IMG/VR virus record: IMGVR_UViG_3300005095_000172
Coordinates: 1-64,000 of that record
Origin: a virus
Lineage: Duplodnaviria; Heunggongvirae; Uroviricota; Caudoviricetes
Length of the DNA: 64,000 nt
Strand: one strand, 5' to 3'
The position numbers and the translations under genes are program-made. Below are positions 5,441-28,410 of this stretch, in pieces (position 1 is the stretch's first letter; every line of letters begins with the position of its first letter). The notes under the pieces are model-generated. The model was not told where the DNA came from, did no database searches, and worked only from the letters and a program-made list of their open reading frames with translations.

Positions 5441-5445
5441 TATTT

Positions 5446-7652: not shown

Positions 7653-7827
7653 TATGTTATATGATACTCTCCAAATATAAAGTAATTGTAAGTAATTAAT
7701 CTTTATATAAACTTAAACAAGCGTTTAAATCCAGAGTTCCTAATTCATCGACCTTGCTATAAATAGTCTTATTTGGTCTCCAAAGGCTTAATTTTATAGT
7801 GTTTCTGGGTATCCCTCAGTAGCACTT

Positions 7828-8991: not shown

Positions 8992-9032
8992 AAACCCTCC
9001 TTATTTTAACTTATTATAGTTATTTAATACTC

Positions 9033-9623
9033 TTAAGTAGATTTTAGAAGAGTTTCTGTAGATTTTAATATTTTTCTTCTATTACTATACATTTTCATAC
9101 TAAAATGATGAATGATAGAAATTAAATCTTCAGTTAATTCTTGTTGAAAATCTTCTTCTTTAGAAGAATTCAACACAACTATTTCTACTCCAAACATTTC
9201 AAAGAAAGTTTCAAAATACCCAAACCCAAATCTCGTAAGTCTGTCTTTATATGAAATGTAAATTTTTGAAATTTTACCATCTTGTATATCTTTTAGTAGA
9301 GAATTCAACCCCTTTCTATTTTCATTCATGCCAGAAGCTATGTCGCTATATACATTTTCTGGAACAACTCCAGTACTAACCATGAATTCTCTAATTATCT
9401 TTTCTTGTCTGATTAAATCGTCTTTTTGTTTCGTGTTTGAAACTCTCGTGTATATCACACATTGTCTTTCTTTTTGTTCTTTTTCAGTGAAAACGTCTTC
9501 ATACATGAATTTCCTAGAAGATAATTCGATGTATTTTACTTTACCGTTTCTTCTCCAATTATTCAGAGTCTGAGTGGTTATTTTGTACTTTTCTTTCATT
9601 TCTTTAGCTGATAGATAACCCAT
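9033..9623 (-). CDS. tnpA: IS607-type TnpA serine recombinase (MerR-like HTH + resolvase catalytic domain)
   Basis: 'VIYTRVSNTKQKDDL' catalytic-Ser motif; N-terminal HTH 'ITTQTLNNWRRNGK'; lies immediately upstream of tnpB. Confidence 0.8.
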   Translation of the reverse strand: MGYLSAKEMKEKYKITTQTLNNWRRNGKVKYIELSSRKFMYEDVFTEKEQKERQCVIYTRVSNTKQKDDLIRQEKIIREFMVSTGVVPENVYSDIASGMNENRKGLNSLLKDIQDGKISKIYISYKDRLTRFGFGYFETFFEMFGVEIVVLNSSKEEDFQQELTEDLISIIHHFSMKMYSNRRKILKSTETLLKST

Positions 9624-9689
9624 TTTCCATTCCTTTAATTAAGTTTAAATTAAAGCTATTTAATTATAATAAAATATTGGAATAGAAAG

Positions 9690-9715
9690 TTATTATAACT
9701 AAAGTTAGCTTAAAG
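9690..9715 (-). promoter_or_regulatory. distal (TATAAT + palindrome) remnant of the same promoter copy, now facing tnpA
   Basis: 'ttattataactaaagttagcttaaag' with no cognate RBS/ATG at the usual spacing. Confidence 0.45.
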
Positions 9716-9800
9716 AAAGATAAATATGTGATTTTATATTTTATTTTTGAAAGATTTTGTTGATATTTAGAAAGAGTTTTTGAAGTAAGGAATGAAAGAG

Positions 9801-10160
9801 CTAGTAATCCCAGCTCTTTTCCCATTTTAATGGTTTTGTTTTTAACGAGTCTTTGGTCAGTCGTTGATACATTCTTTTATACGCATTTGCTTCTTTTGAA
9901 TTACCTGATTCTAATGCTTCTTTGTAAAGACCAAACGCTTCTGAAATATTGTGTGCGTCACACTCTTTTTCTCTATTTTTGAATGCGTCTTGAATACTAG
10001 AAATAAAAACCTTTTCATAGTGACTAGCACCATAGCCATTAGATTCCCCGTAGATATCGTATTTTCTTCTAAGGAAAGTGAGTAAGTTTTCTTTCGAGGT
10101 AAGATGTCTAACAGACATTAACCTCTCACTCATTGTTTCAAGAAGCTCTGAATCAGTCAT
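9801..10160 (-). CDS. hypothetical protein
   Basis: ORF track. Confidence 0.4.
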   Translation of the reverse strand: MTDSELLETMSERLMSVRHLTSKENLLTFLRRKYDIYGESNGYGASHYEKVFISSIQDAFKNREKECDAHNISEAFGLYKEALESGNSKEANAYKRMYQRLTKDSLKTKPLKWEKSWDY

Positions 10161-10458
10161 CTTTAACCTTTGCTTCAGCTCTCATTTTCCTGACATCTCC
10201 CATAAGTTCCATTTCTTCTTCTCTTTTTGGTGGTTCGGTCACCATATCCATTTTTGAAGTATCTTCGATTCCTACAGAAAACTTCCCTTTTGCATCAGTA
10301 AAATCAGCGTTTTTTTGGATAGAACCCTTGAAGTTACAAAAATGTAGAGTTGCTCCTTTAAAGTTACAACCAGATAGATTTGCGTCTCTGAAGTTCGAAT
10401 ATGAAAGGTCTTTTCCTGAAAAGTCTTTCCCTGATAAATCTTGTCCTCTAAAATTCAT
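10153..10458 (-). CDS. pentapeptide-repeat protein (start moved to MNFRG with RBS AAAGGAG)
   Basis: Tandem A(D/N)LSG-type pentapeptides: 'FRGQDLSGKDFSGKDLSYSNFRDANLSGCNFKGATLHFCNFKGS'. Confidence 0.6.
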   Translation of the reverse strand: MNFRGQDLSGKDFSGKDLSYSNFRDANLSGCNFKGATLHFCNFKGSIQKNADFTDAKGKFSVGIEDTSKMDMVTEPPKREEEMELMGDVRKMRAEAKVKDD

Positions 10459-10483
10459 GATTTCTCCTTTTGAATGGTTTCTT

Positions 10484-11413
10484 TTATTTAACTGGCACTT
10501 GAATGAATGGAGAAGACTTATCCCCAAGCATTACTTTAGGCTTAACTCCATCCCATCTATCAATTTCAGCTTTCTCATTTTCAAGTTGTTTATATGAAAG
10601 TACTTCTGGAGTCAGCGATTCAGCAATCATTTTGTTAGCCTTAGCGATGGCTGTAGCCTCGATTAATCTGGAATCTGCGATCCCTTGTGCATTAACTCTT
10701 TTCGCTTCTGCTTCACCTCTTTCCTTAGCTACCCTTTGCTTGGCTTCTGCTTCAGTTCTTTTAATTTCAAGTTCTTTTCTAGCAACTTCTTCATTCATTT
10801 GTTGCTTAGCCATAATTGACTTTTTCAACTGTGGGGGAATATAGATGTTCTGAATAGACGCTGCTGACACCTTAACACACCCTTCCCCAAAGATGCTATT
10901 GAACTTCTTATTGAGATTTTCCTTAATCTTCACCGAGTACGCATCACGCTTTTCGTTCAGGTCGTACACCGTTGCCGTACCAATTACACCCCTTGAGACC
11001 GAACGAACTTTCGGGATAACGATTTTCTCATCCCATACCCCGTCAACACCATAGTGTTTTCTGATATCAGACGCACAAGTTTTGCTCAGGCTGTAGTTCA
11101 GTACCATATCCAACGGCACTTCCATAGACTCACGGGTCAAGATGGTCAAGTGAGTATCATAGATGATCTCGTGACTGTCCTCTTTCTTAGCCGTTTGGTT
11201 GTTCATAATCAAGGCTTTGACCTTAGTATTATAGACATCGATATCCGTCAGCGGATTCAGCGAGAAATGGAAGCCCTCGTGCAACGCTTCATTCTGTACC
11301 TCACCATTTACAACTTCTACCCCAGCTTCACCTGAGTCAATAGTCGTCATATAACACCCACTCATCATAAAAGGCATTGCTGCCATCAATCCAATTTTAA
11401 TCATTCGTTTCAT
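10484..11413 (-). CDS. SPFH/band-7 (prohibitin/HflK-like) lipoprotein with a C-terminal coiled-coil
   Basis: Lipobox 'MMSGC'. SPFH-like core. 'EIKRTEAEAKQRVAKERGEAEAKR' coiled-coil. Start placed at MKRMIK, which has an AAGGAAG RBS. Confidence 0.55.
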   Translation of the reverse strand: MKRMIKIGLMAAMPFMMSGCYMTTIDSGEAGVEVVNGEVQNEALHEGFHFSLNPLTDIDVYNTKVKALIMNNQTAKKEDSHEIIYDTHLTILTRESMEVPLDMVLNYSLSKTCASDIRKHYGVDGVWDEKIVIPKVRSVSRGVIGTATVYDLNEKRDAYSVKIKENLNKKFNSIFGEGCVKVSAASIQNIYIPPQLKKSIMAKQQMNEEVARKELEIKRTEAEAKQRVAKERGEAEAKRVNAQGIADSRLIEATAIAKANKMIAESLTPEVLSYKQLENEKAEIDRWDGVKPKVMLGDKSSPFIQVPVK

Positions 11414-11430
11414 TTTTCTTCCTTTTATTT

Positions 11431-11901
11431 TTATGAAAACAGCCCGTATCCGAACTGAACATTTAGGTCGCCCCACCATCCATTTATTGCTGGAATTTTA
11501 TTTTTCTCTTCTTTATAACAAAGATCAGGGAGTGATATCTTTACGAATTCCCACCAAAGCCCCTCGAAATCATCAACCCAGCGATCACCGTCTTCATCTG
11601 GTTCCCCTATATATTTATAAAGGGTATCTTCATCAATGTACTTTCTTAGCTCATTAAATGCCTCTTCACTGATATAAGAATCTTCATAATCAGTACAAAT
11701 CCTATACAATTTATCTTCTGGGTATTTTCGTTCCACACCAGTAAAATCATCGTTGTGATTAAAAGACACACCAGTAGTCTTACAAGATTGCTTATAAGCT
11801 TCTTGCACATCTTCAAGCGTATGATTCACATCATAAACAACTTCTCGGGATTTTCCGTGTCCGTCATCAGACCAGTCACCGAGCACTAATTTCATCAACA
11901 T
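11431..11901 (-). CDS. hypothetical protein (GC-richer island)
   Basis: ORF track; 'GDWSDDGHGKS' motif of unclear meaning. Confidence 0.45.
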   Translation of the reverse strand: MLMKLVLGDWSDDGHGKSREVVYDVNHTLEDVQEAYKQSCKTTGVSFNHNDDFTGVERKYPEDKLYRICTDYEDSYISEEAFNELRKYIDEDTLYKYIGEPDEDGDRWVDDFEGLWWEFVKISLPDLCYKEEKNKIPAINGWWGDLNVQFGYGLFS

Positions 11902-14346: not shown

Positions 14347-14721
14347 AAGTTTAAGAGAAACGACTGATATTCAGTTCTCTTAAGATTTTTTCTTTTTCCC
14401 CATTTTAAATCTTGTATAGATTTACTGAGTCTTTCCTTTACTTCTTTTCTTGTGGAAAGCGCATAAAGTGAAGACAACTTTTTATCGATAGCTTCTAATT
14501 GTTTAGTTAGAATTTCATTCCTATTCACAATTTAGAAACCTTAACTGATATATACGCTAGGAATGAAATGATAGTAATTTGTACTAGAAGCATTTCTGCT
14601 TGTAGAAGATGTGGTGATACTAAGAAGTCTATATTTCCTGATTGAATAAATTCTTTAGCTCTTTCTATTGCAGGGATATCCATAATAATTCTCCGAAAGT
14701 GATTTAAACTATTTAAGTGAA

Positions 14722-15390
14722 TTATGAAATTTTCCCTAATTTCACATTTCCTTCAGAAACATATACTCCTCTCATTGGGATATAAAGTTCTGGAGCTTCC
14801 ATTACTCTATAATGAATTCCTACTGTTTCACAACTTTCAAAGTCATTTTTATCTTCTACTATATCATAGATATTGTCTATGAATATATCTTTTTCTAGAA
14901 TTGACTCTCCGTATTTATCAACTAGCCATTGTAAAAAATCTTCAAGAGTTTTGAATTTTTCCTTGACTAAAATGAATGGAGGTTCTAATCCTTCTTTTAA
15001 AAATCCTAAAGTGAAATCACTTGAGATGAAAATACCGTTTGAAGTGTTACAATCTTCTATAAGGGAACTTCTGTCGTCAGTGAATTTTGGTTTCACTCTG
15101 TAGTTTTCACTTCCTGGATACATAATAAAATTTGGTTCATAGTCGTGTTTCCAATCGAACCAGGCATTTGAGTTTTCATCATACCATTGTATTGTTCTTC
15201 CTAAATTAAATGCCTTTCTAACTTCAGCGTATTCATCATCTACAATGTAATGGTATTCATTGATGTTTTTATTGATGATGAATTCATCAACTAATCGCCA
15301 GACCGTAGAACCTTCTATCCTTTTCCAGATTCTAGGGTGTCCTTGTTTCACCCAAGAACCAATTTCGTTTATAAGTTTATTGTTGTTCAT
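14722..15390 (-). CDS. hypothetical protein
   Basis: ORF track. Confidence 0.45.
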   Translation of the reverse strand: MNNNKLINEIGSWVKQGHPRIWKRIEGSTVWRLVDEFIINKNINEYHYIVDDEYAEVRKAFNLGRTIQWYDENSNAWFDWKHDYEPNFIMYPGSENYRVKPKFTDDRSSLIEDCNTSNGIFISSDFTLGFLKEGLEPPFILVKEKFKTLEDFLQWLVDKYGESILEKDIFIDNIYDIVEDKNDFESCETVGIHYRVMEAPELYIPMRGVYVSEGNVKLGKIS

Positions 15391-15419
15391 GTAATCCCTC
15401 CACAGGATTTAGTAAAGTT

Positions 15420-16157
15420 TCACAGTCTTCGTTTAATTTTAAATTCATCATAGTCAGTAAAAATCAACCTTACTGGATCACCTTCACTAACTTTTATCTC
15501 AGAAACTCCTTGAACAACATGATTGCTTCCGTCCACCCAAAGGGTTATGGGAGTTCTACTTTTGGCTTTTATGAACATATCTCGTGGCGGAATAACATAC
15601 TCTATGTTTCTATTTGTTTTATCTCCAGTGATACTCCAAAGATTAGAAGAAAGAGGGAGGATAACTCCTCCATTATTCTTGTTGATTCCTGTGGAACCTT
15701 GAGGTGTACTGATTATCAATCCACCTCCTTTGAATTTTGAGAAAATTTCATCTTTCTCAGTTACATCAAAATCAATCCAGGAGTTCATGTCTCCGCCTAC
15801 CATCACTTCATTGAACGCTTGGAATATTTCAGAGACTTGAATTTCTTTGGTTTCATTCACTGAAGCCATATCTCTAACTTCTTTAGAATATGTAACTTCT
15901 ACCTTAATAGACTTAAACTCTACTATTGTTGAATCTTCTATTTCAAATTCTTTTCTTGGACTATTCATTAGAAACCCAACAGTACCAGCATTAATTCCAT
16001 AGAATGGTTTTTGAAAATGTCTATAGAGATTAATCGCCCTTAGAAGTGTCCCATCACCGCCTTTAGCCACGACAACATTTTCATATAACCTAATATATTT
16101 ATTTTCGTCGTACCTATCTTTTATTTCTTCTAGTAATTCTCCAAAATTAGAAAACAT
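15420..16157 (-). CDS. nadK: NAD+ kinase (NadK/PpnK family)
   Basis: 'GGDGTLL' and 'GINAGTVGFL' motifs; 'STPQGSTGIN' resembles the NadK 'TPTGSTAYS' motif. Confidence 0.65.
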   Translation of the reverse strand: MFSNFGELLEEIKDRYDENKYIRLYENVVVAKGGDGTLLRAINLYRHFQKPFYGINAGTVGFLMNSPRKEFEIEDSTIVEFKSIKVEVTYSKEVRDMASVNETKEIQVSEIFQAFNEVMVGGDMNSWIDFDVTEKDEIFSKFKGGGLIISTPQGSTGINKNNGGVILPLSSNLWSITGDKTNRNIEYVIPPRDMFIKAKSRTPITLWVDGSNHVVQGVSEIKVSEGDPVRLIFTDYDEFKIKRRL

Positions 16158-16423
16158 TATCTACCTTCCGAGTTCATTTTACAATATTCTTTTAAAGCTC
16201 TAGACAGACTAGGAAATGTAGTATTGTCCTTCATATACAATTTCACCGAGTCTTGTTTAGTAGAAATGAATAATTTTTCTATAAAGTCTTGATATGAGTA
16301 GTTTCTATGAAGAGAGTCATGTACTACTTCTTTATTTTCATCATCAAGTATAGCGAACCCATCACGAGTAAGAATGTATGAAAACTTCTCTGGGAAGCAG
16401 TTGTCAAATTCTTCTTTTGACAT
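16157..16423 (-). CDS. hypothetical protein, paralog of 17058-17330
   Basis: 'CFPEKFSYILTRDGFAILDDENKEV' versus 'CFPKSLSYILFLDGFMVLDEERKEI'. Confidence 0.4.
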   Translation of the reverse strand: MSKEEFDNCFPEKFSYILTRDGFAILDDENKEVVHDSLHRNYSYQDFIEKLFISTKQDSVKLYMKDNTTFPSLSRALKEYCKMNSEGR

Positions 16424-16450
16424 AAAAACCCCTTTTTATAAATTTACGAA

Positions 16451-16702
16451 TCATGAATGATACCATTTTACATAATCTGATCTTGTTCTCAAAGTGAGTT
16501 CTTGGAGTTCAATTTTTTCTACGAGACCATGCTCATCATAGTACATGTCTGTTTCTTCATTGTACGTCAATTTTCCTGGAATGGGGGTTTTGGAAGCATT
16601 CATCATTTCACAAATTACACACCCACCAGTTTCTCCATTTCTGAATTTCACTAGAGGAAGATCATCATTACCGCAAATTTCACACAATTCATTTTGTAAC
16701 AC
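16451..16702 (-). CDS. Cys-rich zinc-ribbon protein, paralog of 16787-17074
   Basis: 'CEICGNDD...GGCVICE' versus 'CEICGKND...CLACACAG'. Confidence 0.4.
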   Translation of the reverse strand: MLQNELCEICGNDDLPLVKFRNGETGGCVICEMMNASKTPIPGKLTYNEETDMYYDEHGLVEKIELQELTLRTRSDYVKWYHS

Positions 16703-16786
16703 GATTTCTCCTTAAATTAATTCCCGAGGTTTCAAGCCTTTTTAAAACAGACTTTTCACTAGATTGTTTATATAATTCTTTCTTTT

Positions 16787-17074
16787 TCATTCATTATTTT
16801 CAAGCCAATCTTTATATTCTTTTCTTGATTTGAAGCTGTTTTCTCCTACTTTGAAAGTAAATAGGTTGTCACTTTCATCATAGTAACAATCATCATTAGA
16901 ATTATAAGTGATGTAACCACCAAAAACTTCTTTCATACCAGAAGGTTCTGCTCCAGCACAAGCACAAGCAAGGCAATAATTGAAAGTTCCACCACCGAGA
17001 GAACTTGACATCACCAAACATTCTATGTCATTTTTACCGCAGATTTCACATCTTCTATTATTGGTTTCTACCAT
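16787..17074 (-). CDS. Cys-rich zinc-ribbon protein (paralog)
   Basis: See 16451-16702. Confidence 0.4.
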   Translation of the reverse strand: MVETNNRRCEICGKNDIECLVMSSSLGGGTFNYCLACACAGAEPSGMKEVFGGYITYNSNDDCYYDESDNLFTFKVGENSFKSRKEYKDWLENNE

Positions 17075-17330
17075 CTTTGTTCCTATTACAATATTCCAAT
17101 AGTGCTTCTGTCAATTCTCCAGGATTGTTCTTTATATTCCAAAGTACATCTTCTTGATAGCTCTTTATAAATGTTTCCGTTTCTTCGAATGAAATCTCAA
17201 AGTCCCCAATGGAATTCACTAAGATTTCTTTCCTTTCTTCGTCTAAGACCATAAATCCGTCTAAGAAAAGTATGTAAGACAAAGATTTTGGAAAACATTT
17301 TTTCAATTCGATATCGAATCTAGTTTTCAT
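17058..17330 (-). CDS. hypothetical protein (paralog of 16157-16423)
   Basis: See 16157-16423. Confidence 0.4.
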   Translation of the reverse strand: MKTRFDIELKKCFPKSLSYILFLDGFMVLDEERKEILVNSIGDFEISFEETETFIKSYQEDVLWNIKNNPGELTEALLEYCNRNKDGRNQ

Positions 17331-17599
17331 CTTTCAACTCCACCATTTCTGGGTAAATGTATAGATCATTTATATACTCATTACTACTTTCAATGTAAAT
17401 ATCACCGTCTATATCTACAAAAGCAATACTCATCTCTGGTTTGTGTTTCTCTACGAAATCGAAATAATCCGCAAAGGAAGCAGTAACGGCTCCTGCATTT
17501 TCTCTCTCTCTCTTCAGTAATTCTTTTATCGATTTCAAATGCGTTGTCTTTCAATACAATTTCTTTTCCGATATTTCTTGTTGCTTTTTCTGAAGTCAT
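17320..17599 (-). pseudogene. gene split by a frame change inside a (GA)6-7 dinucleotide repeat (about 95 aa if restored)
   Basis: The ATG with promoter element sits at 17597-17599. The N-terminal frame degenerates after the repeat at 17501-17513, while the +1 frame continues with protein-like sequence. Confidence 0.4.
17501..17513. repeat. (TC)6-7 / (GA)6-7 dinucleotide microsatellite inside a coding region
   Basis: Seen in the sequence: 'tctctctctctct'. Confidence 0.8.
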
Positions 17600-17605
17600 T
17601 TTAGT

Positions 17606-17648
17606 CCTTTCTTTTTAACTTCTATATTATAGCTAAAATAGTCTTAAA
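17606..17648 (-). promoter_or_regulatory. promoter element copy
   Basis: Consensus match. Confidence 0.55.
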
Positions 17649-17654
17649 AACAAA

Positions 17655-17897
17655 TTAAATGAATTTATCGAATTCAGGAAAATTAATTGGTCCTACTATA
17701 ATCCATTTTTTAAATGCATCGGCATCTTTTGAGTTAGCCCATATTCTATTACCTAAATATTTCGTGGTTGGAGTTTCAGTCCCAAATGCTTGTTCGATAG
17801 AAGCATCAAATGTATCATCTTTTGGGCAACAAAAATAGTATCTTCCTGGTTCTATTTCTTCTGGCGTAGTAATCCTTTTCATTTTCTTTCCTCGCAA
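17655..17897 (-). CDS. hypothetical protein
   Basis: ORF track. Confidence 0.4.
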   Translation of the reverse strand: MRGKKMKRITTPEEIEPGRYYFCCPKDDTFDASIEQAFGTETPTTKYLGNRIWANSKDADAFKKWIIVGPINFPEFDKFI

Positions 17898-18118
17898 TTT
17901 TGTGGTTTTAAAGTTTTAGGATTGATATAGACTGATAATCTTCTTTTCCCGTAAAGGTAAACCACATTTTCAATGCAAATCTTTCTATACCAAAAACCTT
18001 GATGTGGTCGTTCAATACTTCTTGTTTTAGAAAAATCCTCATTACTTTCTGTGAGTTCGCACCCACTAAAACTCAAAGAAATAATGATCCCTATCATAGC
18101 CATTGAAATCTTTTTCAT
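17879..18118 (-). CDS. small lipoprotein
   Basis: Signal/lipobox 'ISLSFSGC'. Confidence 0.4.
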   Translation of the reverse strand: MKKISMAMIGIIISLSFSGCELTESNEDFSKTRSIERPHQGFWYRKICIENVVYLYGKRRLSVYINPKTLKPQNCEERK

Positions 18119-18855
18119 TTTTTATTCCTTTGGTGTTTTCCGCAAGAACACCAACCTTTTTCAATTAGTGCCCAAAAATTTCTACCGTCCATCAAGTGTT
18201 TAAATTCACAAAAGTCACTTCTGATATCTCTGGCATTAGCATCAATGTGTATATCACTTCTATCAACAAATTCAACTTCTTTCATCTTAAATCCATTATA
18301 ATCAAATATTATAGTATAGAACTCATTAAAGTATTCTCGTTCATTACAGTAGAAATAGTCATATCTATCTTCTTCTTTATTGTAATAGTAAAGAGTAACC
18401 TCATCCAAAGTATTAGCTATTTTAAGTACTGAGTCTTCTATTTCTTTGAACCAAATGTCCCAATCTTCATTATCGTGAGAATGTACGAAGAAACACTCAC
18501 TTGGATAAACTTGCCTTATAAGTTCAATTCTTTCGTTAAAGCTTAGAGGGTTCTTTTCTGGACATTCACCATTGTCATCTCCAAGTACAACAATAGGTAC
18601 TTTCCCATCAAGAAGAATCTCATTAATGATGTGTTGGTGACCAAAGTGGAATGGTTGAAACCTTCCTATAACCATTCCGTATTCTACATTTCTCGGTTTT
18701 ACCTCTGATGTTACGGCAAATTCAAGGTAATTCATTTCATACTTCGGATACATATTTTGAAGAGAAGAATACAACACGCTTTCATCTACATTCCCGTGAA
18801 GTTCTTTCAGTACCCTGAAATCATTCCTAATTTTGTTTATTGTATAAGTAGTCAT
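18115..18855 (-). CDS. nicotinamide-mononucleotide adenylyltransferase (NadM/NatV-type NMNAT) with a C-terminal extension
   Basis: 'GMVIGRFQPFHFGHQHII' (H/T)xGH nucleotidyltransferase motif characteristic of NMNATs; adjacent to nadV. Confidence 0.65.
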   Translation of the reverse strand: MTTYTINKIRNDFRVLKELHGNVDESVLYSSLQNMYPKYEMNYLEFAVTSEVKPRNVEYGMVIGRFQPFHFGHQHIINEILLDGKVPIVVLGDDNGECPEKNPLSFNERIELIRQVYPSECFFVHSHDNEDWDIWFKEIEDSVLKIANTLDEVTLYYYNKEEDRYDYFYCNEREYFNEFYTIIFDYNGFKMKEVEFVDRSDIHIDANARDIRSDFCEFKHLMDGRNFWALIEKGWCSCGKHQRNKK

Positions 18856-18879
18856 TGTCTCTTCCCTTTCAGAGATGCC

Positions 18880-20319
18880 TTATCTTGACATCTCTCTTAC
18901 TGCTGTAAGTGTAGTAAGTTTCACTTCCCCATTTTCATAGATTGTTTCTAGGCAATCTTGAATTACTCTATCATCGACTTTCAAGTATCTATCATCAGTG
19001 AAATATTCATCAGTTTCTTTGTTGTACCAAAGTGTCAGTTCACCTTTTTTAGACTTTTTGTTCGGGGCGGTAATAGGGTCTTTGAACACATCTCTTTGTA
19101 CAAGGTATGGCTCCCAGACACTATTTCCTTCACCGTCTTCGATAGGACTTCCTTCATCTACGATAATACTTGAACATTTAAGAGCCCAACCTTGGGTGTC
19201 TCTATTATGAGATTGCATCAACCAACCACCAGAACCAAAGGCGATATTAGAAGAAGCGTAACCTCTTTCTTTAAGAACTTCAAGCATTTCTTTGATAGTT
19301 TCTTCATTAATACCATCACCCCAGATAATTCCGTACTTAGTAAACTCTTTATAACCTTTAGAATTAATTGTGAATTTAACTTCATTCTTTTCCATAATAT
19401 CAAGAGTTTTATTAATCACTTCTACTGGATTTCCTGAGTCTGGTCGAATAACAAACTTAGGGTACTCTTCACTTTCAATCTTTTCTTTGAACTCACCTGA
19501 TGTTACAGCATCAACCGTTTTAAAGTAATTGTAAGAATCACAAACTGCTGCTACAATAACTGAAGTTTTGTTGACTTCAATGTGGTTCATAATTATCTTG
19601 AGTTCATTTTCTTTAAGCCAAGATGTAGTCGTACTGTGCTCCGTAGCAGGGATTGAGTACCCAGCGTCTTCTTCATCATAGAATTCAAATGCGTATCTAA
19701 GAGAATTGAAGTTATCAGTTCCCATAAACTGTGTTAGATGAGCTACACCACCAATCCCTGCTGATTCCACTGAACTCGAACCTCTGTCTCCGAAGTTGTG
19801 GAACTGGAACTGTACGTCAAATACATCATCTGATGAAGTTTCCTTCCAGTACTTTTCAAGAAGTTCTCTGATATAGTAGCTTCTTGTGGCAATATTTGAT
19901 GTGTACCAAACCTTAAGGAAAAGAGTTTCAAGGAAACCTGCTACCCAAGGAACTTTCTCATCTGTTGATTCAATGCTGAATAGAATATTTCCAGTAGGAA
20001 TTACAGAACCTTCTTTAACAGCTCTGATTTTTACTGGAATATACCCGTTGTATTCATTTACAATATACTCCCAACCTTCTTTATTGAAAGGGATACCGTG
20101 CCCAGAAGCAAATTTTTCTGCTTGGTTTACATCATCCATTGTTACTGGATTCATAAGGTACTTCAAGATAAAGTACTGAATTCCAAAGAAAACCGTTTTT
20201 GGATATACTTTACCGCTTCTTGCTTCTGCGTACACAAACATTTGCTTCATATTTTCTGGGTATTGTTTCCAGTGACTGTATTTGTAAGAGTCACTCAACA
20301 TAATTACATTTTCTTTCAT
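18880..20319 (-). CDS. nadV: nicotinamide phosphoribosyltransferase (NadV/NAMPT)
   Basis: 479 aa; N-terminal 'SDSYKYSHWKQYP' and overall NAMPT-like sequence. Confidence 0.8.
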   Translation of the reverse strand: MKENVIMLSDSYKYSHWKQYPENMKQMFVYAEARSGKVYPKTVFFGIQYFILKYLMNPVTMDDVNQAEKFASGHGIPFNKEGWEYIVNEYNGYIPVKIRAVKEGSVIPTGNILFSIESTDEKVPWVAGFLETLFLKVWYTSNIATRSYYIRELLEKYWKETSSDDVFDVQFQFHNFGDRGSSSVESAGIGGVAHLTQFMGTDNFNSLRYAFEFYDEEDAGYSIPATEHSTTTSWLKENELKIIMNHIEVNKTSVIVAAVCDSYNYFKTVDAVTSGEFKEKIESEEYPKFVIRPDSGNPVEVINKTLDIMEKNEVKFTINSKGYKEFTKYGIIWGDGINEETIKEMLEVLKERGYASSNIAFGSGGWLMQSHNRDTQGWALKCSSIIVDEGSPIEDGEGNSVWEPYLVQRDVFKDPITAPNKKSKKGELTLWYNKETDEYFTDDRYLKVDDRVIQDCLETIYENGEVKLTTLTAVREMSR

Positions 20320-20330
20320 TTTATTCCCTT

Positions 20331-20639
20331 TTATTGATTTCTAATGATGAGTCTATTCTCATCACACAAACTTAAACTATTAGATTTCCTTATTAACCTT
20401 TTTATGTATTCAGCGGTACTTATAGGTTTCACATCAATAATCTTTACTATATCATTATAGAACTTCATCTTTAAGATTTCTCTTTGTACTAATTCCAAAC
20501 AATTTGAAGACGATATGGTATAATGGTCAACTGAAATTTCAACATTTAACCCAAACATTTTTGTGAATATAATGTAGTTCGGAATATCCTGGCCATTCCG
20601 ATTATTCGGTTGAGCAAATGTAAAAGAAACCACACTCAT
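20331..20639 (-). CDS. hypothetical protein
   Basis: ORF track. Confidence 0.4.
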   Translation of the reverse strand: MSVVSFTFAQPNNRNGQDIPNYIIFTKMFGLNVEISVDHYTISSSNCLELVQREILKMKFYNDIVKIIDVKPISTAEYIKRLIRKSNSLSLCDENRLIIRNQ

Positions 20640-20656
20640 AAAAACTAAAAAGGAAT

Positions 20657-20986
20657 TTATAGTACTTCATTTTGTACCTCTTGAATACTTTTTAAGTTTA
20701 TCGGGTAATCCTTCAACGACTGAACTCCTCTTTCCGTGATGGAGTATTCTTTTGTGTCATAGTTGAGTTCTATAAGCCCTGATTCTCTATAAATCTGCAT
20801 ATTGTCGGAATAATAACCTCGAAGTTCTTTCCTATTTCCTTTTTTACCAAGTACTTTAGTGACTATTTCATATTTTGAACTTGGTCCGTGTTTATGTAAA
20901 TAGTCTAAAATTTTTATTAGTTTAGTTGGTTTGCCATTGATAGTTCTTGAAGCCGTTGCTTTAGCTCTTCTCATTCTATAATACAT
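20657..20986 (-). CDS. hypothetical protein (possible winged-helix DNA-binding protein)
   Basis: Basic N-terminus; promoter element upstream. Confidence 0.35.
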   Translation of the reverse strand: MYYRMRRAKATASRTINGKPTKLIKILDYLHKHGPSSKYEIVTKVLGKKGNRKELRGYYSDNMQIYRESGLIELNYDTKEYSITERGVQSLKDYPINLKSIQEVQNEVL

Positions 20987-20991
20987 CTGTG

Positions 20992-21036
20992 TCCTTTCTA
21001 AGTTTATATGATATGATAGCTAATTTTAGCTTAAAA
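20992..21036 (-). promoter_or_regulatory. degenerate promoter element copy
   Basis: Partial consensus. Confidence 0.35.
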
Positions 21037-21061
21037 GTGAATTAATTCCTATAATTAATTT

Positions 21062-21436
21062 TTAAAGTAATTCTTCAAGGTCACTTTCATCTAAGGAGAA
21101 TATCCTACTTAAGAAGCCTCTTTTTCTCTCATCTAGTTTTAGGTTAGTAAGGTCTTCTTGACTTTCTTTTGAGAATTCTATGTATAAGTATTCCTTATCA
21201 GTAGATATAATATCTTCTACTTTTACTTTATATCTTTTTGCGCTTTCATCTTCAGAAACTTCCAACTCATAACTTACTGGAACTTCTCCAACACCATTAT
21301 AGATGTCTTCTAATCTTTGTTTAGCTTCTTGCGGGACTTCTATTCCAACAATTTCACAAGAAGATTTGATGTTCTCAAGTACTTTCAATTCTTCTAAGAA
21401 ATTCTTCCCGCAATAAATTCTAGTTTGTAGTGCCAA
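21062..21436 (-). CDS. hypothetical protein
   Basis: ORF track. Confidence 0.4.
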   Translation of the reverse strand: MALQTRIYCGKNFLEELKVLENIKSSCEIVGIEVPQEAKQRLEDIYNGVGEVPVSYELEVSEDESAKRYKVKVEDIISTDKEYLYIEFSKESQEDLTNLKLDERKRGFLSRIFSLDESDLEELL

Positions 21437-21509
21437 CTGAACTCCTTACTCATATTTGTTGTATTTTACTCTTAGTTTACTATTCTATACTTTAAGACAA
21501 CTTAAATTT

Positions 21510-21881
21510 TTACTCTACTGTCACAACTACATTATCTTTCACCACTATTCTATGGTTATCCCCAATTCCATATTTCCCATTGTTTATAATCTTTGCTGCC
21601 CCTAGATATTCTGGTAGCATTTTCTTATGTATCTCAGATATATCAATCCCAAGCACTCTTTCTATATATCTTAATGTAGCGTGTTCGCTTATGATAAGTT
21701 CTTTTGAAGTGTGTTTAAGTTTTTCGATTTCTTTCTTTAAGGAATCATTCCTTTTTCTTTCTTCTTTTAAAGATTTCCTGACTTCTTGAATTTGAGATTC
21801 GAAATTTGAGATTTTAGCGTTGGATTCAGCTAATCGTGTTTCTAATGATTTGAGAGTTGTGTGTTTTGCTTTGTTGTTCAT
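21510..21881 (-). CDS. coiled-coil protein
   Basis: Heptad-rich N-terminal half. Confidence 0.4.
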   Translation of the reverse strand: MNNKAKHTTLKSLETRLAESNAKISNFESQIQEVRKSLKEERKRNDSLKKEIEKLKHTSKELIISEHATLRYIERVLGIDISEIHKKMLPEYLGAAKIINNGKYGIGDNHRIVVKDNVVVTVE

Positions 21882-21928
21882 AGTAAATCCTTTTGATGAA
21901 TTATACTATAAACAAACTTAAATGTTTC

Positions 21929-22054
21929 TTATTTTCTAATGTCTTCTTTGGAGAATATCATATATAGAATTATCATTATTAAGATTACTACCACACCGCT
22001 GTCTTGAGAAGCGTGTGCTATTTGAGTCGTGTTGTTTACGTCAGGTTTACCCAT
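21929..22054 (-). CDS. small single-TM protein (about 41 aa; not in the ORF track)
   Basis: RBS 'AAGGAAATA' + ATG; hydrophobic 'VVVILIMIILYMIF'. Confidence 0.3.
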   Translation of the reverse strand: MGKPDVNNTTQIAHASQDSGVVVILIMIILYMIFSKEDIRK

Positions 22055-22063
22055 TATATTTCC

Positions 22064-22693
22064 TTAAGATAATTTTAAAATCCCATTATCATTCCAAAGT
22101 GCTCCAGAAATACCAGGATTAAAATCAGGAACAAAAAACCTTTGTTTTTCTTTAAAATCTTTTACTGTAAGTACTTGATTGTCTTTTGTTGGAGAATATC
22201 CTTCTGGTAATTCGTCATATTGCTTAATTCCTCCTATATTCTCTAATGATGTTTCAATCGGAATGAGGTCTTCATTTATTGAAACATCTTCATTGTCTTC
22301 AGAAGAGTAATCTTGTGCCATATCGTTTGAGTATTTACCAAGATAAGGAAAATCGTTTTTATTATGGTAATTGAGTTCTAAAGAATCATATACTTCTATC
22401 CTAGAAGCTCCGTCAAATAATGAAAATACGTCTCCTTGCTTAAAGAAAAGCTTACTTTGTGGATAGAAAACGATGTATCTCATAGCATCTGGTTCTTGTT
22501 CAGACGGGAAATCTTTAACAGAATAAACTATTTGTTCTATGTCTATGAGTTCTTTATCTAACCAAATTATTTCATTATTTATGAAAATTCCTATCTCTTT
22601 AGTATCGGTGGAAATGACTATTTCTCCTTCTTTCAGAATTTCATTTTCTAAAGTAGTTTTAAATCCAGTCTTTAATATAATCCCAGTATTCAT
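22064..22693 (-). CDS. putative tail-fiber / receptor-binding-like protein (paralogous to the next gene)
   Basis: Shares the C-terminal motif 'GALWNDNGILKLS' with 'GAIWNDNGTLRIQ' in 22704-23819. Confidence 0.3.
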   Translation of the reverse strand: MNTGIILKTGFKTTLENEILKEGEIVISTDTKEIGIFINNEIIWLDKELIDIEQIVYSVKDFPSEQEPDAMRYIVFYPQSKLFFKQGDVFSLFDGASRIEVYDSLELNYHNKNDFPYLGKYSNDMAQDYSSEDNEDVSINEDLIPIETSLENIGGIKQYDELPEGYSPTKDNQVLTVKDFKEKQRFFVPDFNPGISGALWNDNGILKLS

Positions 22694-22703
22694 CTATCTC
22701 TCC

Positions 22704-23819
22704 TTATTCATCACAACAATAATCACAAACTCTACTTGTATCAGCTCCACTAGGGATATTCAAGTAATTCAATGGACACTCAGGTAGTTTGTGGCAATAA
22801 CCCCAAGCACCATAAAAGTTAGTCCCTGAACTAACATCAAGTTGAGGGAATGAGGTTAATGATGTACAATTATACCAAGCCCAACTAAAGTCAGTTATCT
22901 TACTTTCATCTTCAGCACTCACTACAAATTCTGTCATATTAGTACAATAATAGAACAAAAGACGATAACTTGATCTATTCCCGTATCTTATAATCTCACC
23001 TTTGGTTACTTTATCTCGATTACTTGTTGGATAAACACTATCATTCGTAATAACATCTATGTACCCGTTAGTCACTGGTCTAGTAATACCATCACTCCTC
23101 CAACCAAGTTCTTCAGTGGTGTAGTATCTCATTACACCTTCACATTTCTGAATTCTCAAAGTTCCATTGTCATTCCAGATGGCTCCGCACTCTTCAGGTT
23201 CTTCTGTTGGTGGAAAATAATAAATAGATTTAGAAGTTCCCAAAGTCACTAAGTTGTTTTCATCTCCACCAATATAATCTTCATCCATTTCTCCATTTTC
23301 AAGAAGCATCCCGTTTTCATTCTTCATGAAATTAGAGTATTGATTCAAATATTCTTTAGGAATAATAGATTCATCACCAATGTTTTTCCAGTCACCTTGA
23401 AGAACACTGTCGTACGCATCTTTGTTTAATTTCACACCACCGCTTCTAGTGATGTACCCATCGTAGTTCACTTTTGGTTCAAAGTAGTCAAATATTTTAG
23501 ATTTTTGATATGTGTTAAGATTAGACATAGGTCTAAAAACCCAACCATTATTGGTCTTGTAGAATTCAGAGTACGCATAGTCACCAGATTCTTTAGTACA
23601 AATCCATAAATCTCCTGGTTCTCCATCTAGAGAAGTAGGTACATTTGGGCTTACAATAACTCTTTCATCGACCCAATCTGGTTTCAAAAGCGGAAATGTA
23701 GCTAATCTATTTCCGTGATAAGTGTGTAGTGAGAGTTCATCAGGATTAAGGATAATTTCCCCAATAGGGATATTAGTAGGTATATCTGATGATTTATAGA
23801 GGATAATTCCTGTTTCCAT
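22704..23819 (-). CDS. putative tail-fiber / receptor-binding-like protein with a Cys-rich C-terminus
   Basis: See above; 'CDYCCDE' tail. Confidence 0.3.
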   Translation of the reverse strand: METGIILYKSSDIPTNIPIGEIILNPDELSLHTYHGNRLATFPLLKPDWVDERVIVSPNVPTSLDGEPGDLWICTKESGDYAYSEFYKTNNGWVFRPMSNLNTYQKSKIFDYFEPKVNYDGYITRSGGVKLNKDAYDSVLQGDWKNIGDESIIPKEYLNQYSNFMKNENGMLLENGEMDEDYIGGDENNLVTLGTSKSIYYFPPTEEPEECGAIWNDNGTLRIQKCEGVMRYYTTEELGWRSDGITRPVTNGYIDVITNDSVYPTSNRDKVTKGEIIRYGNRSSYRLLFYYCTNMTEFVVSAEDESKITDFSWAWYNCTSLTSFPQLDVSSGTNFYGAWGYCHKLPECPLNYLNIPSGADTSRVCDYCCDE

Positions 23820-23886
23820 TTAAACTACCTTTTTGAATATTTAATGGTCATTCAGTGTCTAGATAGTTTAAATGTATTGGGAGTTT

Positions 23887-24189
23887 TTATTCTTCGTTAA
23901 TAATTCTTAATGCTTCTTCTTGTGACAAACCATCTTCAGTCAATGCAGCAAATCTAAGAGATTTGAAGATATCAACGACTACATCGTCATTTGTCATTTC
24001 TACGTCTTCTGGAAGACTACTAATCACTTCTTTTGCTACAGTAAGGACTCCAACTGTGATTTCAGCCAATGCTTGGGTTAAGTTTTCTGAGTCGATTTCT
24101 ACGGAACTTCCTTCAATTTTAATCATAATTCCTCCTAATCTTTTAGTGAAGCGAATACAATTTTCGCAGCAATCCAAATTGATTTCCAA
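23887..24189 (-). CDS. hypothetical acidic protein
   Basis: ORF track. Confidence 0.35.
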   Translation of the reverse strand: MEINLDCCENCIRFTKRLGGIMIKIEGSSVEIDSENLTQALAEITVGVLTVAKEVISSLPEDVEMTNDDVVVDIFKSLRFAALTEDGLSQEEALRIINEE

Positions 24190-24725
24190 TCATTGTTATC
24201 CATCAATTCTTCATCATTCAACCAAATAACTTTATTGTGGTAAAATTCGTCTGGGTCTTTCAAATCTTGAGCTTCATTTTTAATATCAGCTTCAGTTTTT
24301 CCTGGTGTTTTATCAGTTACATCAACCAAGAACCCAACACAAGATTGATTCATTTGAGTAGAAACCAAAGTTGCGCCAACACATACGACATTTTCATCAT
24401 CTACTTCATACCCAGCTTCTTCCTTAACTTCAATAATACAAATTTCTTCCGGAGATTTATCCATATCGATACTACCACCGAATGCAGTGAGCATCATGGC
24501 TTTGTCTTCAAATAGCTCATCCATTGGAGGTTTAGATTCGAAGATTAGCCCCCATCTATCTTTTCTATTTGCATCAAAGAGGATAAACGCAATAGAATCT
24601 CTACCTCCTCTTTCAGCATAGTAGTAATGTCCCCTAGCTTTCTTTACTGTCATGAACGGGTTTCCGTCTGGTGTAGTTTCTTCTGAAGCCCAGACAACTT
24701 CTGGTGTGTAATCATTATTTTCCAT
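24135..24725 (-). CDS. Nudix hydrolase (likely ADP-ribose / NAD-related pyrophosphatase)
   Basis: Nudix box 'GGSIDMDKSPEEICIIEVKEEAGY' (Gx5Ex7REUxEExGU). Confidence 0.7.
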   Translation of the reverse strand: MENNDYTPEVVWASEETTPDGNPFMTVKKARGHYYYAERGGRDSIAFILFDANRKDRWGLIFESKPPMDELFEDKAMMLTAFGGSIDMDKSPEEICIIEVKEEAGYEVDDENVVCVGATLVSTQMNQSCVGFLVDVTDKTPGKTEADIKNEAQDLKDPDEFYHNKVIWLNDEELMDNNDWKSIWIAAKIVFASLKD

Positions 24726-25189
24726 TATGGTTCCTTTAAAAATTTCTTAGTGAGTTTCCCAGAATACTCATCTTGTTTAAGTGCTTCTGGATAATTCTGC
24801 ATTACTTCTGTGTAAGAAGAGTATTTTTCTTCAGTGATTCCGTACTTTTTAATCCCATCTTCGTCAAAATAAGGGTACACCCACTGATATTCTGGTTCTG
24901 AAGTGAAGGAATATTCTAGATGGGACGCATTATAAAAGAAATCATAATCTTCCACAAGAATTTTTTCTTCTCCTACGATAACCCATACATTTTCTCCTTC
25001 TAAATATGCAATCTTAAACTCACATAATCTATCATTTGAATTTATGATGATATCATATGTACAAAAACCACATTGCTTTTCAACCCAACTTCCTGAATCT
25101 AGAACTATCAGGCTACATTGTCTTCCACCATCAATCCAATTTTGGTATTCAAGCTTTAGGTGCGCTTTTAGATATTCATGAGTTTTCAT
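24725..25189 (-). CDS. hypothetical protein
   Basis: ORF track. Confidence 0.4.
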   Translation of the reverse strand: MKTHEYLKAHLKLEYQNWIDGGRQCSLIVLDSGSWVEKQCGFCTYDIIINSNDRLCEFKIAYLEGENVWVIVGEEKILVEDYDFFYNASHLEYSFTSEPEYQWVYPYFDEDGIKKYGITEEKYSSYTEVMQNYPEALKQDEYSGKLTKKFLKEP

Positions 25190-25413
25190 TTCTTGTTCTC
25201 GAATTCTTTGATTATTTCATTGGTTGTATTAGCGTCAGAAATTACAACAATTCCTTTCCTCACTTCCATAACAGTATCGAAAGTGTCAGTCTTTACTGTC
25301 ATGCTTTCTCCGTTTTGGTATGTAATTATGACTAAAGTGATTACAGTCACTAAAGCAAGAAAAATTAAATCCAAAAGCACACTCATAAATTTCATATTAT
25401 CTCCTATTTTCAA
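25186..25413 (-). CDS. small membrane protein
   Basis: TM helix. Confidence 0.35.
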   Translation of the reverse strand: MKIGDNMKFMSVLLDLIFLALVTVITLVIITYQNGESMTVKTDTFDTVMEVRKGIVVISDANTTNEIIKEFENKK

Positions 25414-25657
25414 TTATTTGGTAGTTCCCGCAAAATGTGTAGCGTCTATTATTTTTAGTATTTTCATCATAAAATGTCACACAATTCCCATTTATTGAGA
25501 AATCATTAGTGAATTTCCAAGAACCTTCCGTAGTGATTGAATATCTATATAACTTTCTCTTATCTTCAGCACATCCGCTCACGAAGATACTGAAAATTAT
25601 CATGAAAGTAAATGCCAAGTTTCGCTTAAAATAGATCATATTGAACGTCCTCAACAA
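25397..25657 (-). CDS. small lipoprotein
   Basis: 'IFSIFVSGC' lipobox. Confidence 0.35.
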   Translation of the reverse strand: MLRTFNMIYFKRNLAFTFMIIFSIFVSGCAEDKRKLYRYSITTEGSWKFTNDFSINGNCVTFYDENTKNNRRYTFCGNYQIIENRR

Positions 25658-27542: not shown

Positions 27543-28410
27543 TCAACTTTCAAGATATTTACCCTCCACTATATTTTCAACTTCTTTAAAATCAGCTTTA
27601 TTAACAGTCACAACAGCGATTCTTGTTCTGGGTACCAATTCATTATATCTAAAAGTTTCTCCGTTCTTTTGGAACCGCCCTTCAGATTGAACAAGTACTT
27701 CTTCTCTCTTCACAAACCTACCGAATTTTTCTCCTGGAGTTGTTTCAGAGAACCAATCCTTACCAGTTTTATTTTTGCAATGTTCAATCTGTTCTTGAGA
27801 TGTTTTATTTTGCAGTTCTTTATGAGAACAATAAGTCTGGGCAAAAACATTTTTTGAATTCTTTTCGGGATCTCTTACTCTCCACAAAAATGAATTTACA
27901 ACTTCACTCTCATCCTCAACTCCATAAACTCTAGCATCAAAATAAGCTAAGTTGAGTTTGTGTCTAAACTTCTCCGTGAGTCCTTGAGCTTCAAGAACTT
28001 CTTTTAGTCCTTCATTGAACTTCACGGAACAGTACGCAGCAAAAAGTGAAGCAATCTTTTGAACCCTACCATTATAAATATGTTGGTAGTCCTTACGAAG
28101 TTCCTTCTCAAACCCAGTTTCCTCTTTCAACTCAACTTTCCTTAGCTGAGTAAGAGAAGGGATATAAAGTGTGATCTCGTCACTCTGAGTGTAACCAGTG
28201 TAAGCGTTGAATTCCTCCACTAACTTCACCGTACAATAATTCATAGCAGCAATAAGCACTCTATCAAAAGGCTTTCAAATCCCTTAGTGAATTTTGAAAT
28301 CCATGACCGTCTAACCTAACGATGATATGGTTATCTACAGGAACTCTTTTTTCGTATTGTGCTTCATATCCCTTTAATCTATCACCAAGAGCTGGGCTTG
28401 TATCTTTCAT
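27543..28410 (-). CDS. Thg1-like protein (tRNA-His guanylyltransferase / 3'-5' nucleotidyltransferase family), interrupted by a +1 frame change at UUU_UGA
   Basis: N-terminal 48-aa ORF (28264-28410) 'VPVDNHIIVRLDGHGF' matches Thg1 'VVRIDGKKFH'. The downstream ORF (27543-28259, GTG start) 'QSDEITLYI', 'AYFDARV', 'FLWRVRD' matches Thg1 'ESDEYSFIL', 'PSFDGRV', 'YLRWRQ'. Confidence 0.55.

Follow-up and report, generated by a model that had tools for sequence, protein, structure and literature searches.

A NARP2-type gene pair with a divergent NadK-family kinase and a stand-alone Nudix protein on the metagenomic contig of a probable T4-like phage

Do phages that rebuild NAD+ also restore the NADP(H) pool of the infected cell? 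NAD+ depletion is a widespread bacterial strategy against phages, and the three pathways described as reconstituting the cofactor (NARP1-3) contain no step to NADP+. The question is raised by a locus on a 140,623-bp metagenomic contig (IMG/VR record IMGVR_UViG_3300005095_000172), of which 64 kb were visible to us and are called the window below. A sequence-only reading of the window had proposed a complete NAD+ salvage set, composed of NadV, a nicotinamide mononucleotide (NMN) adenylyltransferase (NMNAT), an NAD kinase (NadK), a Nudix hydrolase and a kinase resembling the ribosylnicotinamide kinase (RNK) domain of NadR. All five open reading frames (ORFs) are present exactly at the positions collected in Table 1, every one on the minus strand. 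From our analysis the source is probably an uncultured low-GC T4-like phage, which encodes NAD+ reconstitution of the NARP2 type and, in addition, two accessory enzymes, a short NadK-family kinase and a stand-alone Nudix hydrolase.

The NadV-NMNAT core and its phage

NadV scored 498.4 bits with the NCBIfam model PRK09198/NF006629, for which the equivalog cut-off is 405, and matched PF18127 (NAMPT_N) with 97 bits and PF04095 (NAPRTase) with 131 bits. Against solved structures it reached 366 bits with Xanthomonas Nampt, about 320 bits with human NAMPT and 184 bits with 9W5X/9W5W, which according to the depositors is SpbetaL1 Namat, the enzyme of NARP1. The motif FHNFGDRG, containing His174, was aligned with LHDFGARG of Xanthomonas Nampt; the histidine of the H-D/N-F-G-x-R-G motif is catalytic in Nampt and undergoes autophosphorylation (PMC12774641). 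Over its full length the protein is 41% identical to NadV of Vibrio phage KVP40. Judged from these comparisons, its identity as Nampt appears solid. The gene alone is ordinary, as homologues are found in 2015 phage records. On a related 235.6-kb contig (L003/L025) an inserted HNH endonuclease ORF splits NadV into NAMPT_N and NAPRTase parts (7809-9997).

The NMNAT gene lies 24 bp downstream of NadV. Its product matched Pfam CTP_transf_like with 31 bits (cut-off 21), and its GRFQPFHFGH motif, at residues 64-73, aligns with GRFQPFHKGH of MJ0541. The matches in PDB were exclusively NMNATs of the NadM, NadR or archaeal type (2qjo as the best, at 1.2e-10, then 1f9a and NadR 6gye). All 12 named NCBIfam matches were NMNAT or adenylyl/cytidylyltransferase-family models, and the thirteenth (E 0.0098) was a hypothetical-protein model. 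The protein is single-domain, with no fused Nudix and with an N-terminal extension of about 55 aa, which is conserved in the closest relative (L010). In relatives the NMNAT gene adjoins NadV or is found near it (L002, L006, L010, L016-19, L021, L024 and L045). Two genes past NMNAT, L010 also carries a Nuc_deoxyri_tr2 gene (nucleoside 2-deoxyribosyltransferase-like, 5279-5776), of which no counterpart was detected in the window.

The adjacent pair thus provides the predicted two-step route from nicotinamide to NAD+, as had been proposed, and homology confirms it as the known, published NARP2 pathway. Experiments with NARP2, which consists of Nampt and Nmnat, have demonstrated that it rebuilds NAD+ and overcomes Thoeris, DSR1/2 and SIR2-HerA (Osterman et al. 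2024); according to the same paper, NAD+ is over-produced by it even without a defence system. As in NARP2 of KVP40, formed by NadV and NatV (Osterman et al. 2024, Lee et al. 2017), a Nampt-clade NadV stands beside a NadM-type NMNAT, with the same chemistry. The two differ in that NatV of KVP40 is an NMNAT-Nudix fusion, while in the window NMNAT is single-domain and the Nudix protein is separate and non-orthologous. The NadK-clade kinase is a further addition; neither a kinase nor NADP is mentioned in the NARP2 paper. A similar relation holds with the NadM NMNAT/ADP-ribose pyrophosphatase of Synechocystis (slr0787, structure 2qjo): NMNAT and Nudix activities would belong to one pathway in both, but in the window they are located on separate genes, 5.3 kb apart.

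NARP1 (Adps and Namat) likewise employs an enzyme of the Nampt fold, for the same purpose. In the window, however, the scores of NadV favour Nampt over Namat, and no PRPS/Adps-like family was found among all 108 minus-strand ORFs of at least 70 aa, which were scanned against Pfam families; for these reasons we assign the pair to NARP2 rather than NARP1, and NadV as a Namat was ruled out. The same scan detected no phosphoribosyl pyrophosphate (PRPP) synthetase and no PnuC transporter, and the set is therefore not as complete as it had been called. NARP3 (PnuC and a NadR-like protein; Sci Adv 2026) and the Sinorhizobium jumbo phage Phosso also rebuild NAD+ via NMN, and Phosso too pairs its salvage genes with NadK: in this cultured phage a canonical NadK (GDGL...GSTAY) lies about 5 kb from PnuC and the NadR-like gene. 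Unlike them, the window has neither PnuC nor an NMNAT-RNK fusion, and its kinase is not of the canonical kind.

As for the source, the window has a GC content of 33%, nearly all of its genes are on the minus strand and no tRNA genes were detected. Its NadK protein is identical to a JGI protein of the 140,623-bp contig. Markers typical of T4-like phages are present (gp32, UvsW, UvsY, a tail-sheath domain, RNA ligases and a 5'-3' exonuclease), the closest cultured gp32 being that of Campylobacter phages with merely 39% identity. Neither megablast of the NAD region nor tblastn of the Nudix protein gave any match in 50,697 GenBank phage records, which indicates that there is no close relative among cultured phages.

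The NadK-family kinase and the Nudix protein beside the core

The product of the third gene matched the N-terminal domain of Pfam NAD_kinase with 28.9 bits (cut-off 25.5). Searches of PDB, with the single sequence as well as with a 36-sequence profile, gave 23 matches, all of them NAD(H) kinases, and 18 NCBIfam NAD-kinase models were matched under their cut-offs. The motifs GGDGT (at residue 33) and NE/D (FNEV, at 115) are intact. A diacylglycerol (DAG)/sphingosine kinase, which the sequence-only reading had named as the alternative, was rejected, as no DAGK family of Pfam was matched and every one of the 23 structures was an NAD(H) kinase. By sequence, the protein unquestionably belongs to the NAD-kinase family. 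It shares with the canonical enzymes (M. tuberculosis Ppnk, L. monocytogenes NADK1, E. coli/Salmonella NadK) the superfamily and, as predicted, the fold class, the GGDGT and NE/D motifs, a Gly-rich STPxGST motif and a basic residue at the position of E. coli R175. It differs from them in being shorter and in having Gly and Ile in place of Ppnk D189 and Y202, and its clade is often furnished with a zinc ribbon or fused to NMNAT.

About 50 representatives of this clade were recovered at E <=1e-30 from a library clustered at 50% identity. They are 220-300 aa long and have motifs of their own (INKNN, ITGDKT, WVDGxN), and in many of them the N-terminus bears a zinc ribbon (CxxC...CxxC). Throughout the family the G-G-D-G core does not vary, and the following Thr and the Asn-Asp/Glu pair hardly do. 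No clade member was present among the matches listed from 185,579 representative cellular genomes, the best of which were 31-34% identical. The clade is likely to be absent from cells and, as far as sequence searches tell, apparently phage-restricted. A member reading FRGGGLIISTSQGSTGI was seen on 427-kb and 230-kb contigs (L008/L009) with no NadV or NMNAT nearby; its neighbours are EF-Tu, MFS, Toluene_X, TilS-like and IspD genes, the GC content is 24.8%, and the source is either a small cellular genome or a megaphage. The origin of these contigs bears on the claim of phage restriction, because they may be cellular.

That an added NadK is less common, as had been supposed, agrees with the counts: NadK-family genes were found in 28 phage records, the larger part of them contaminating bacterial sequence or flanks of prophages, as compared with 2015 records for NadV. 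A 2022 survey of viral NAD+ and ADP-ribose (ADPR) systems makes no mention of NAD kinase or NADK, and we found no mention of a phage-encoded or viral NAD kinase in the literature searched. Within that literature, a NadK clade restricted to phages and linked with the NMNAT of NARP2, in some cases by fusion, appears to be undescribed.

The genomic context was surveyed in 18 distinct loci with a clade member, in which NadK is 39-63% identical to the window protein. Both NadV and NMNAT were located within 10 kb of it in 12 of the 18 loci, or in 13 if a locus with a NadV fragment only is counted. None of 19 viral loci with a canonical-type NadK had both genes nearby, and one had NadV only (Fisher's exact test, p = 1e-5, with no correction for relatedness or for unequal flank lengths). 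These canonical-type genes lie mostly at contig ends, and our data suggest that they belong to the host flanks of prophages. In one viral locus (L042) a canonical Asp/Tyr NadK does stand beside NadV. The order of genes in the clade loci is variable: NadK follows NadV directly in L003, where it starts 4 bp after it, the order is reversed in L021, and L018 and L045 contain a compact four-gene block Nudix-NadV-NMNAT-NadK.

In three proteins an N-terminal NMNAT is joined to a C-terminal NadK-like domain. One of them, of 455 aa, is encoded by a single uninterrupted frame (9299-10666 of the 222,650-bp viral contig L024) and also has an N-terminal zinc ribbon; the other two, P0367 (393 aa) and P0369 (401 aa), each stand for a 50%-identity cluster of their own. 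The HxGH motif of P0367 reads TLAH, and the NMNAT half of that protein may be inactive. As the fusion joins enzymes that are consecutive in the pathway, the succession NMN to NAD+ to NADP+ is its simplest reading. From these fusions and from the linkage we infer that the clade would convert NAD+ to NADP+, and on balance we prefer to see in it an NAD+ kinase that binds the nicotinamide end of its substrate differently. The pairing of a canonical Asp/Tyr NadK with genes of NAD salvage in locus L042 and in phage Phosso agrees with this.

The Nudix protein scored 16.9 bits by itself, under the Pfam cut-off of 21.1, which its homologue in L002 passes (26.1). Its AlphaFold2 (AF2) model, built on a 37-sequence alignment, had a mean predicted confidence (pLDDT) of 93.4, and the top Foldseek matches were NUDT14, the ADPR pyrophosphatases of T. 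thermophilus and K. pneumoniae, E. coli YffH and NudE, at E of about 1e-9; more than 300 Nudix chains were matched at E <=1e-3. Within the Nudix box, G84, the catalytic E99, E102 and E103, and G105 show no variation among the 37 homologues, and the first Glu of the consensus (Gx5Ex7REUxEExGU) is absent. The YffH/AdpP model TIGR00052 was matched by 14 of the 37 members, under its cut-off. Judged from the model, this is a genuine Nudix hydrolase with a predicted fold of the ADPR/NDP-sugar pyrophosphatase type. Homologues lie beside NadV in L002, L017, L018, L022 and L045, while L003, L020 and L026 carry the classical NMNAT-Nudix (NadM) fusion instead. The association of both NadK and Nudix with the NadV-NMNAT pair, asserted earlier from the window, is thus upheld by their recurrence alongside it in relatives and, for the kinase, by the three fusions.

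According to the mechanism that we propose, NadV would condense nicotinamide with host PRPP into NMN and the NadM-type NMNAT would adenylylate NMN to NAD+, as expected from homology and from the published biochemistry of homologues. The short kinase would then phosphorylate the 2'-OH of the new NAD+ to yield NADP+, restoring the NADP(H) pool, which is expected to collapse as well when NAD+ is destroyed, and on which phage synthesis of deoxynucleoside triphosphates (dNTPs) would rely. The YffH/AdpP-type Nudix enzyme would cleave ADPR, which defence NADases release as their second product, to AMP and ribose-5-phosphate. It would thereby both feed PRPP synthesis and remove ADPR, the same role as that of the Nudix domain fused to NMNAT in KVP40-type NadM/NatV. 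The repeated linkage of the clade to the NMNAT of NARP2, and its threefold fusion with it, would imply that phages must restore NADP(H) too. It raises the questions whether NADase defences starve phages of NADP(H), and whether the kinase, with or without the Nudix enzyme, improves escape when added to NARP2.

The nicotinamide pocket and alternative explanations

Several findings speak against this reading. The C-terminal Pfam domain of the kinase scored 19.7 bits, under the cut-off of 23.7, and its best NCBIfam NadK score was 84, far under the cut-off of 211 or more. Conserved region II, which is xDGLIxSTPTGSTAY in canonical NadKs, reads KGGGLIISTPQGSTGI; phmmer, MAFFT and profile alignments agree that its Asp is changed to Gly and the Tyr of GSTAY to Ile (GSTGI). 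Among 120 listed homologues neither Asp nor Tyr is kept in any of the 95 scorable members, Asp being replaced by Gly or Ser and Tyr nearly always by Ile or Val. In NMNAT the score was under every NCBIfam equivalog cut-off (best 46 bits, with cut-offs of 127-409), and the second motif is NARDIR (207-212) instead of ISxTxxR; archaeal NMNAT has SGTEIR, the second ATP-binding motif of MJ0541. Relatives of the window enzyme show [NHD]A[RST][DNK][IV]R at this site, with Ile-Arg kept and the Ser/Thr positions variable. The Nudix box has Ile in place of its Arg, the protein has no Pro at residues 107-127, downstream of the box, and it aligns with the Nudix domain of NadM over the 33-column box only. 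Further, the four NAD-related genes are interspersed in the window with unrelated ORFs, and the counter-defence purpose is borrowed by analogy from homologues, so that a general metabolic boost may be served instead.

A proline about 15-16 residues past the Nudix box is said to mark classical ADPR pyrophosphatases, a rule attributed to Dunn and colleagues (1999), and its absence leaves ADPR as a presumed substrate of the Nudix protein. Origin as a split-off Nudix domain of NadM was ruled out, because the alignment is confined to the box, and for the same reason the protein is better regarded as a non-orthologous replacement. The replacement of the NadM fusion by a stand-alone YffH/AdpP-like Nudix appears, within the literature searched, to be undescribed.

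The residues changed in the kinase are those that hold nicotinamide. In the structure of M. tuberculosis Ppnk with NAD the nicotinamide ring stacks on Tyr202, and Asp189, coming from the neighbouring subunit, binds the amide of nicotinamide and positions the Tyr; the equivalents in Listeria are Y163 and D150 (PMC8553519; PMC7660225). As Gly and Ile occupy these places in the alignments, both nicotinamide-holding residues are replaced in the window protein. By comparison, all of the best 80 cellular NadKs retrieved from the representative genomes keep Asp and Tyr. Both residues are also kept in Salmonella NadK and Listeria NADK1 and in all canonical-type NadKs on viral contigs. The refuting case named in the sequence-only reading, loss of the GSTAY-type motif in what is really a DAG/sphingosine-type kinase, is thus half borne out: the motif itself reads GSTGI and is preceded by Gly instead of Asp, but the protein is a member of a divergent NadK clade and not a DAG/sphingosine kinase. 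More distant short NadK-like proteins have other non-Asp residues paired with Tyr, Phe or Trp, and the change is therefore the end of a gradient and not a single jump. The position that sets specificity between NAD+ and NADH (E. coli Arg175, Ppnk Gly187), two residues before the lost Asp, is Lys or Arg in most clade members, as in NAD+-specific kinases. The altered pocket poses an enzymological puzzle, because NadK, an enzyme under study as an antibacterial target, shows no variation at these residues elsewhere.

With the contacting Asp and Tyr replaced and the scores low, the acceptor could differ from NAD+. The kinase might act on a nicotinamide-free adenosine nucleotide of bacterial immunity, such as ADPR or the Thoeris-type signal 1''-2'/1''-3' cyclic ADPR (cADPR); it would then be a new anti-defence enzyme, whose 2'-phosphorylation inactivates immune signals or turns NADase products into 2'-phospho-ADPR alongside NARP2. 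The intact catalytic GGDGT and NE/D motifs fit this idea, as do the complete replacement of the nicotinamide subsite in the clade, set against its retention in canonical enzymes of cells and viruses, the absence of clade members among the cellular matches listed, and the frequent clustering of anti-defence genes. We nevertheless find it rather improbable that ADPR or a cADPR isomer is the substrate, and similarly improbable that the clade is such a new class of anti-defence enzyme. The three NMNAT-NadK fusions argue that the kinase uses NAD+, the product of NMNAT, the basic residue beside the nicotinamide ring is retained at the NAD+/NADH specificity position, the loss of Asp is graded among distant relatives and not unique to the clade, and the canonical NadK by NadV in L042 suggests an ancestral link with a true NAD kinase. 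An NAD+ kinase with a differently built nicotinamide pocket thus remains our preferred reading. The module as a whole could, on another account, be an auxiliary metabolic set that raises NAD(P)(H) for nucleotide and DNA-modification metabolism independently of NADase defences. This is possible, though we hold it for the less likely purpose. In its favour are the over-production of NAD+ by NARP2 in cells free of defence systems, the suitability of a NadK step for NADPH-dependent dNTP synthesis, and the abundance in this phage of reactions on nucleotides and DNA for which homologous systems need reduced cofactors (a thymidine hypermodification cluster and a dNMP kinase in the window, ribonucleotide reductase in relatives). 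The synthesis of dNTPs depends on NADPH. On the other side, NARP2 rescued phages experimentally from the three defences named above, and a Nudix enzyme acting on ADPR would be most useful during cleavage of NAD+; one purpose does not preclude the other. Finally, the genes might be functionally unrelated and share a 10-kb stretch by chance within a long block of early genes. The set does not form a single compact operon in the window: small ORFs fill about 2 kb between NadK and NMNAT, and NadV is set apart from Nudix by unrelated ORFs over about 3.8 kb. A scan of 14500-25500 found 49 promoter-like sites where shuffled controls gave 46, the promoter and terminator scan being uninformative. Chance is hardly credible all the same, because homologues of NadK, NadV, NMNAT and Nudix recur together in diverged relatives, in differing orders and in compact four-gene blocks, and because fusions exist.

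The fifth gene, which the sequence-only reading took for a NadR-RNK-like kinase, lies 31 kb from the NAD genes, beyond the span 15420-24725. Its product, a P-loop kinase, scored 41.9 bits with Pfam AAA_28 (cut-off 27), the family of the RNK domain of NadR, and as a nicotinamide riboside kinase it would offer a second entry into NMN. H. influenzae NadR was indeed the second-best fold match of its AF2 model (TM score 0.64), the family as a whole was aligned by hhalign with the RNK-like domain of a NadR-like protein from a phage (24% identity, E 1.2e-3), homologues are found 2-3 kb from NadK in three loci (L006, L016, L017), and one homologue is named 'nicotinamide riboside kinase' by JGI. Yet neither phmmer nor profile searches matched the protein to solved NadR, the best profile matches in PDB being deoxynucleoside kinases, and thymidylate kinases are about equally close in fold (TM score 0.68). 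The missing PnuC also disagrees with such a role, and so does the location, with a dNMP kinase two genes away and the thymidine hypermodification cluster close by. The usual neighbours in relatives (L131-L133) are genes of dNTP metabolism, namely those for ribonucleotide reductase, a homologue of thymidylate synthase, the nucleotidase NT5C and a dNMP kinase (DNMK). Cultured phages with this family (CcrBL9, FA67, S-CBWM1) had no NAD gene in the 5-kb flanks examined, where the contexts were uninformative. We consider a nicotinamide riboside kinase unlikely; the protein is most likely a (deoxy)nucleoside or nucleotide kinase of dNTP metabolism that stands outside the NAD module, and the earlier inclusion of it in the set is probably wrong. 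The candidate role of 5-hydroxymethyldeoxyuridine (5-hmdU) DNA kinase of the adjacent cluster was ruled out by the presence of a separate HMUD2 kinase.

Other features of the window

Table 1. Positions of the NAD-related genes, the P-loop kinase and other annotated features in the 64-kb window
Feature	Coordinates	Strand	Evidence or remark
NadV/Nampt, 479 aa	18880-20319	-	NCBIfam PRK09198, Pfam NAMPT_N + NAPRTase, phrog_448
NMNAT, NadM/archaeal type, 246 aa	18115-18855	-	Pfam CTP_transf_like, GRFQPFHFGH
Short NadK-family kinase, apparently phage-specific clade, 245 aa	15420-16157	-	Pfam NAD_kinase, PDB matches
Stand-alone Nudix, predicted YffH/AdpP type, 196 aa	24135-24725	-	AF2 model, Nudix box
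AAA_28 P-loop small-molecule kinase, 188 aa (185 by JGI gene call)	55490-56056	-	Pfam AAA_28, phrog_2107
dNMP kinase	54455-54997	-	near hypermodification cluster
2-oxoglutarate (2OG)-Fe(II) oxygenase-like ORF	56230-57042	-	weak match
Amidoligase_2	60603-61538	-	hypermodification cluster
5-hmdU DNA kinase HMUD2	61529-62206	-	hypermodification cluster
Amino-acid:DNA transferase/aGPT-Pplase3	62219-63211	-	hypermodification cluster
GATase_6	63208-63843	-	hypermodification cluster
Band_7/SPFH	10484-11479		Pfam
Thg1-like tRNA-His guanylyltransferase domain	27543-28259		Pfam
T4 RNA ligase 1	5751-6866		Pfam
AAA_33 kinase-domain protein	503-1720		Pfam; may be part of an RNA-repair set

Both gaps between the NAD genes contain repeated material on the minus strand. 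Between NadK and NMNAT a two-gene unit is tandemly duplicated (16157-17330), the ORFs 16157-16423 and 17058-17330 sharing 39% identity and the CxxC zinc-ribbon ORFs 16451-16702 and 16787-17074 sharing 30%. In the gap between NadV and Nudix, two adjacent ORFs (22064-23819) have paralogous N-terminal halves with a common 'WNDNG(T/I)L' motif; the larger weakly matched a PHROG of 1813 aa whose function is unknown, and the pair has no apparent tie to NAD metabolism. Judged from the sequence alone, two small minus-strand ORFs (17879-18118 and 25397-25657) have lipoprotein-like signal peptides with lipobox cysteines (LSFSGC and FVSGC, respectively) and may encode phage lipoproteins.

The thymidine hypermodification cluster extends over 56230-63843 on the minus strand, and DNA of this phage probably contains hypermodified thymidine. 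Inside its limits a 690-aa minus-strand ORF (57312-59384) encodes an HNH_3 endonuclease embedded in a Hint/intein splicing domain. The UvsW helicase is apparently interrupted (46070-49430, minus strand): ORF 48447-49430 contains UvsW_N/ResIII and the N-part of an intein, ORF 46070-47170 the C-part of the intein followed by Helicase_C, and the ORFs 47315-47773 and 47931-48401 lie between them. Either a split gene or an intein whose homing endonuclease is degraded or free-standing could explain this arrangement. An IS607-like pair, also on the minus strand (7828-9623), is made of TnpB/OrfB_IS605 with a Cas12f-like TNB domain (7828-8991) and a serine recombinase (9033-9623). Other Pfam matches in the first half of the window (1-32500) included a GGDEF domain of the diguanylate-cyclase type (E 1.2e-15), pentapeptide repeats, YopX and Metallophos.

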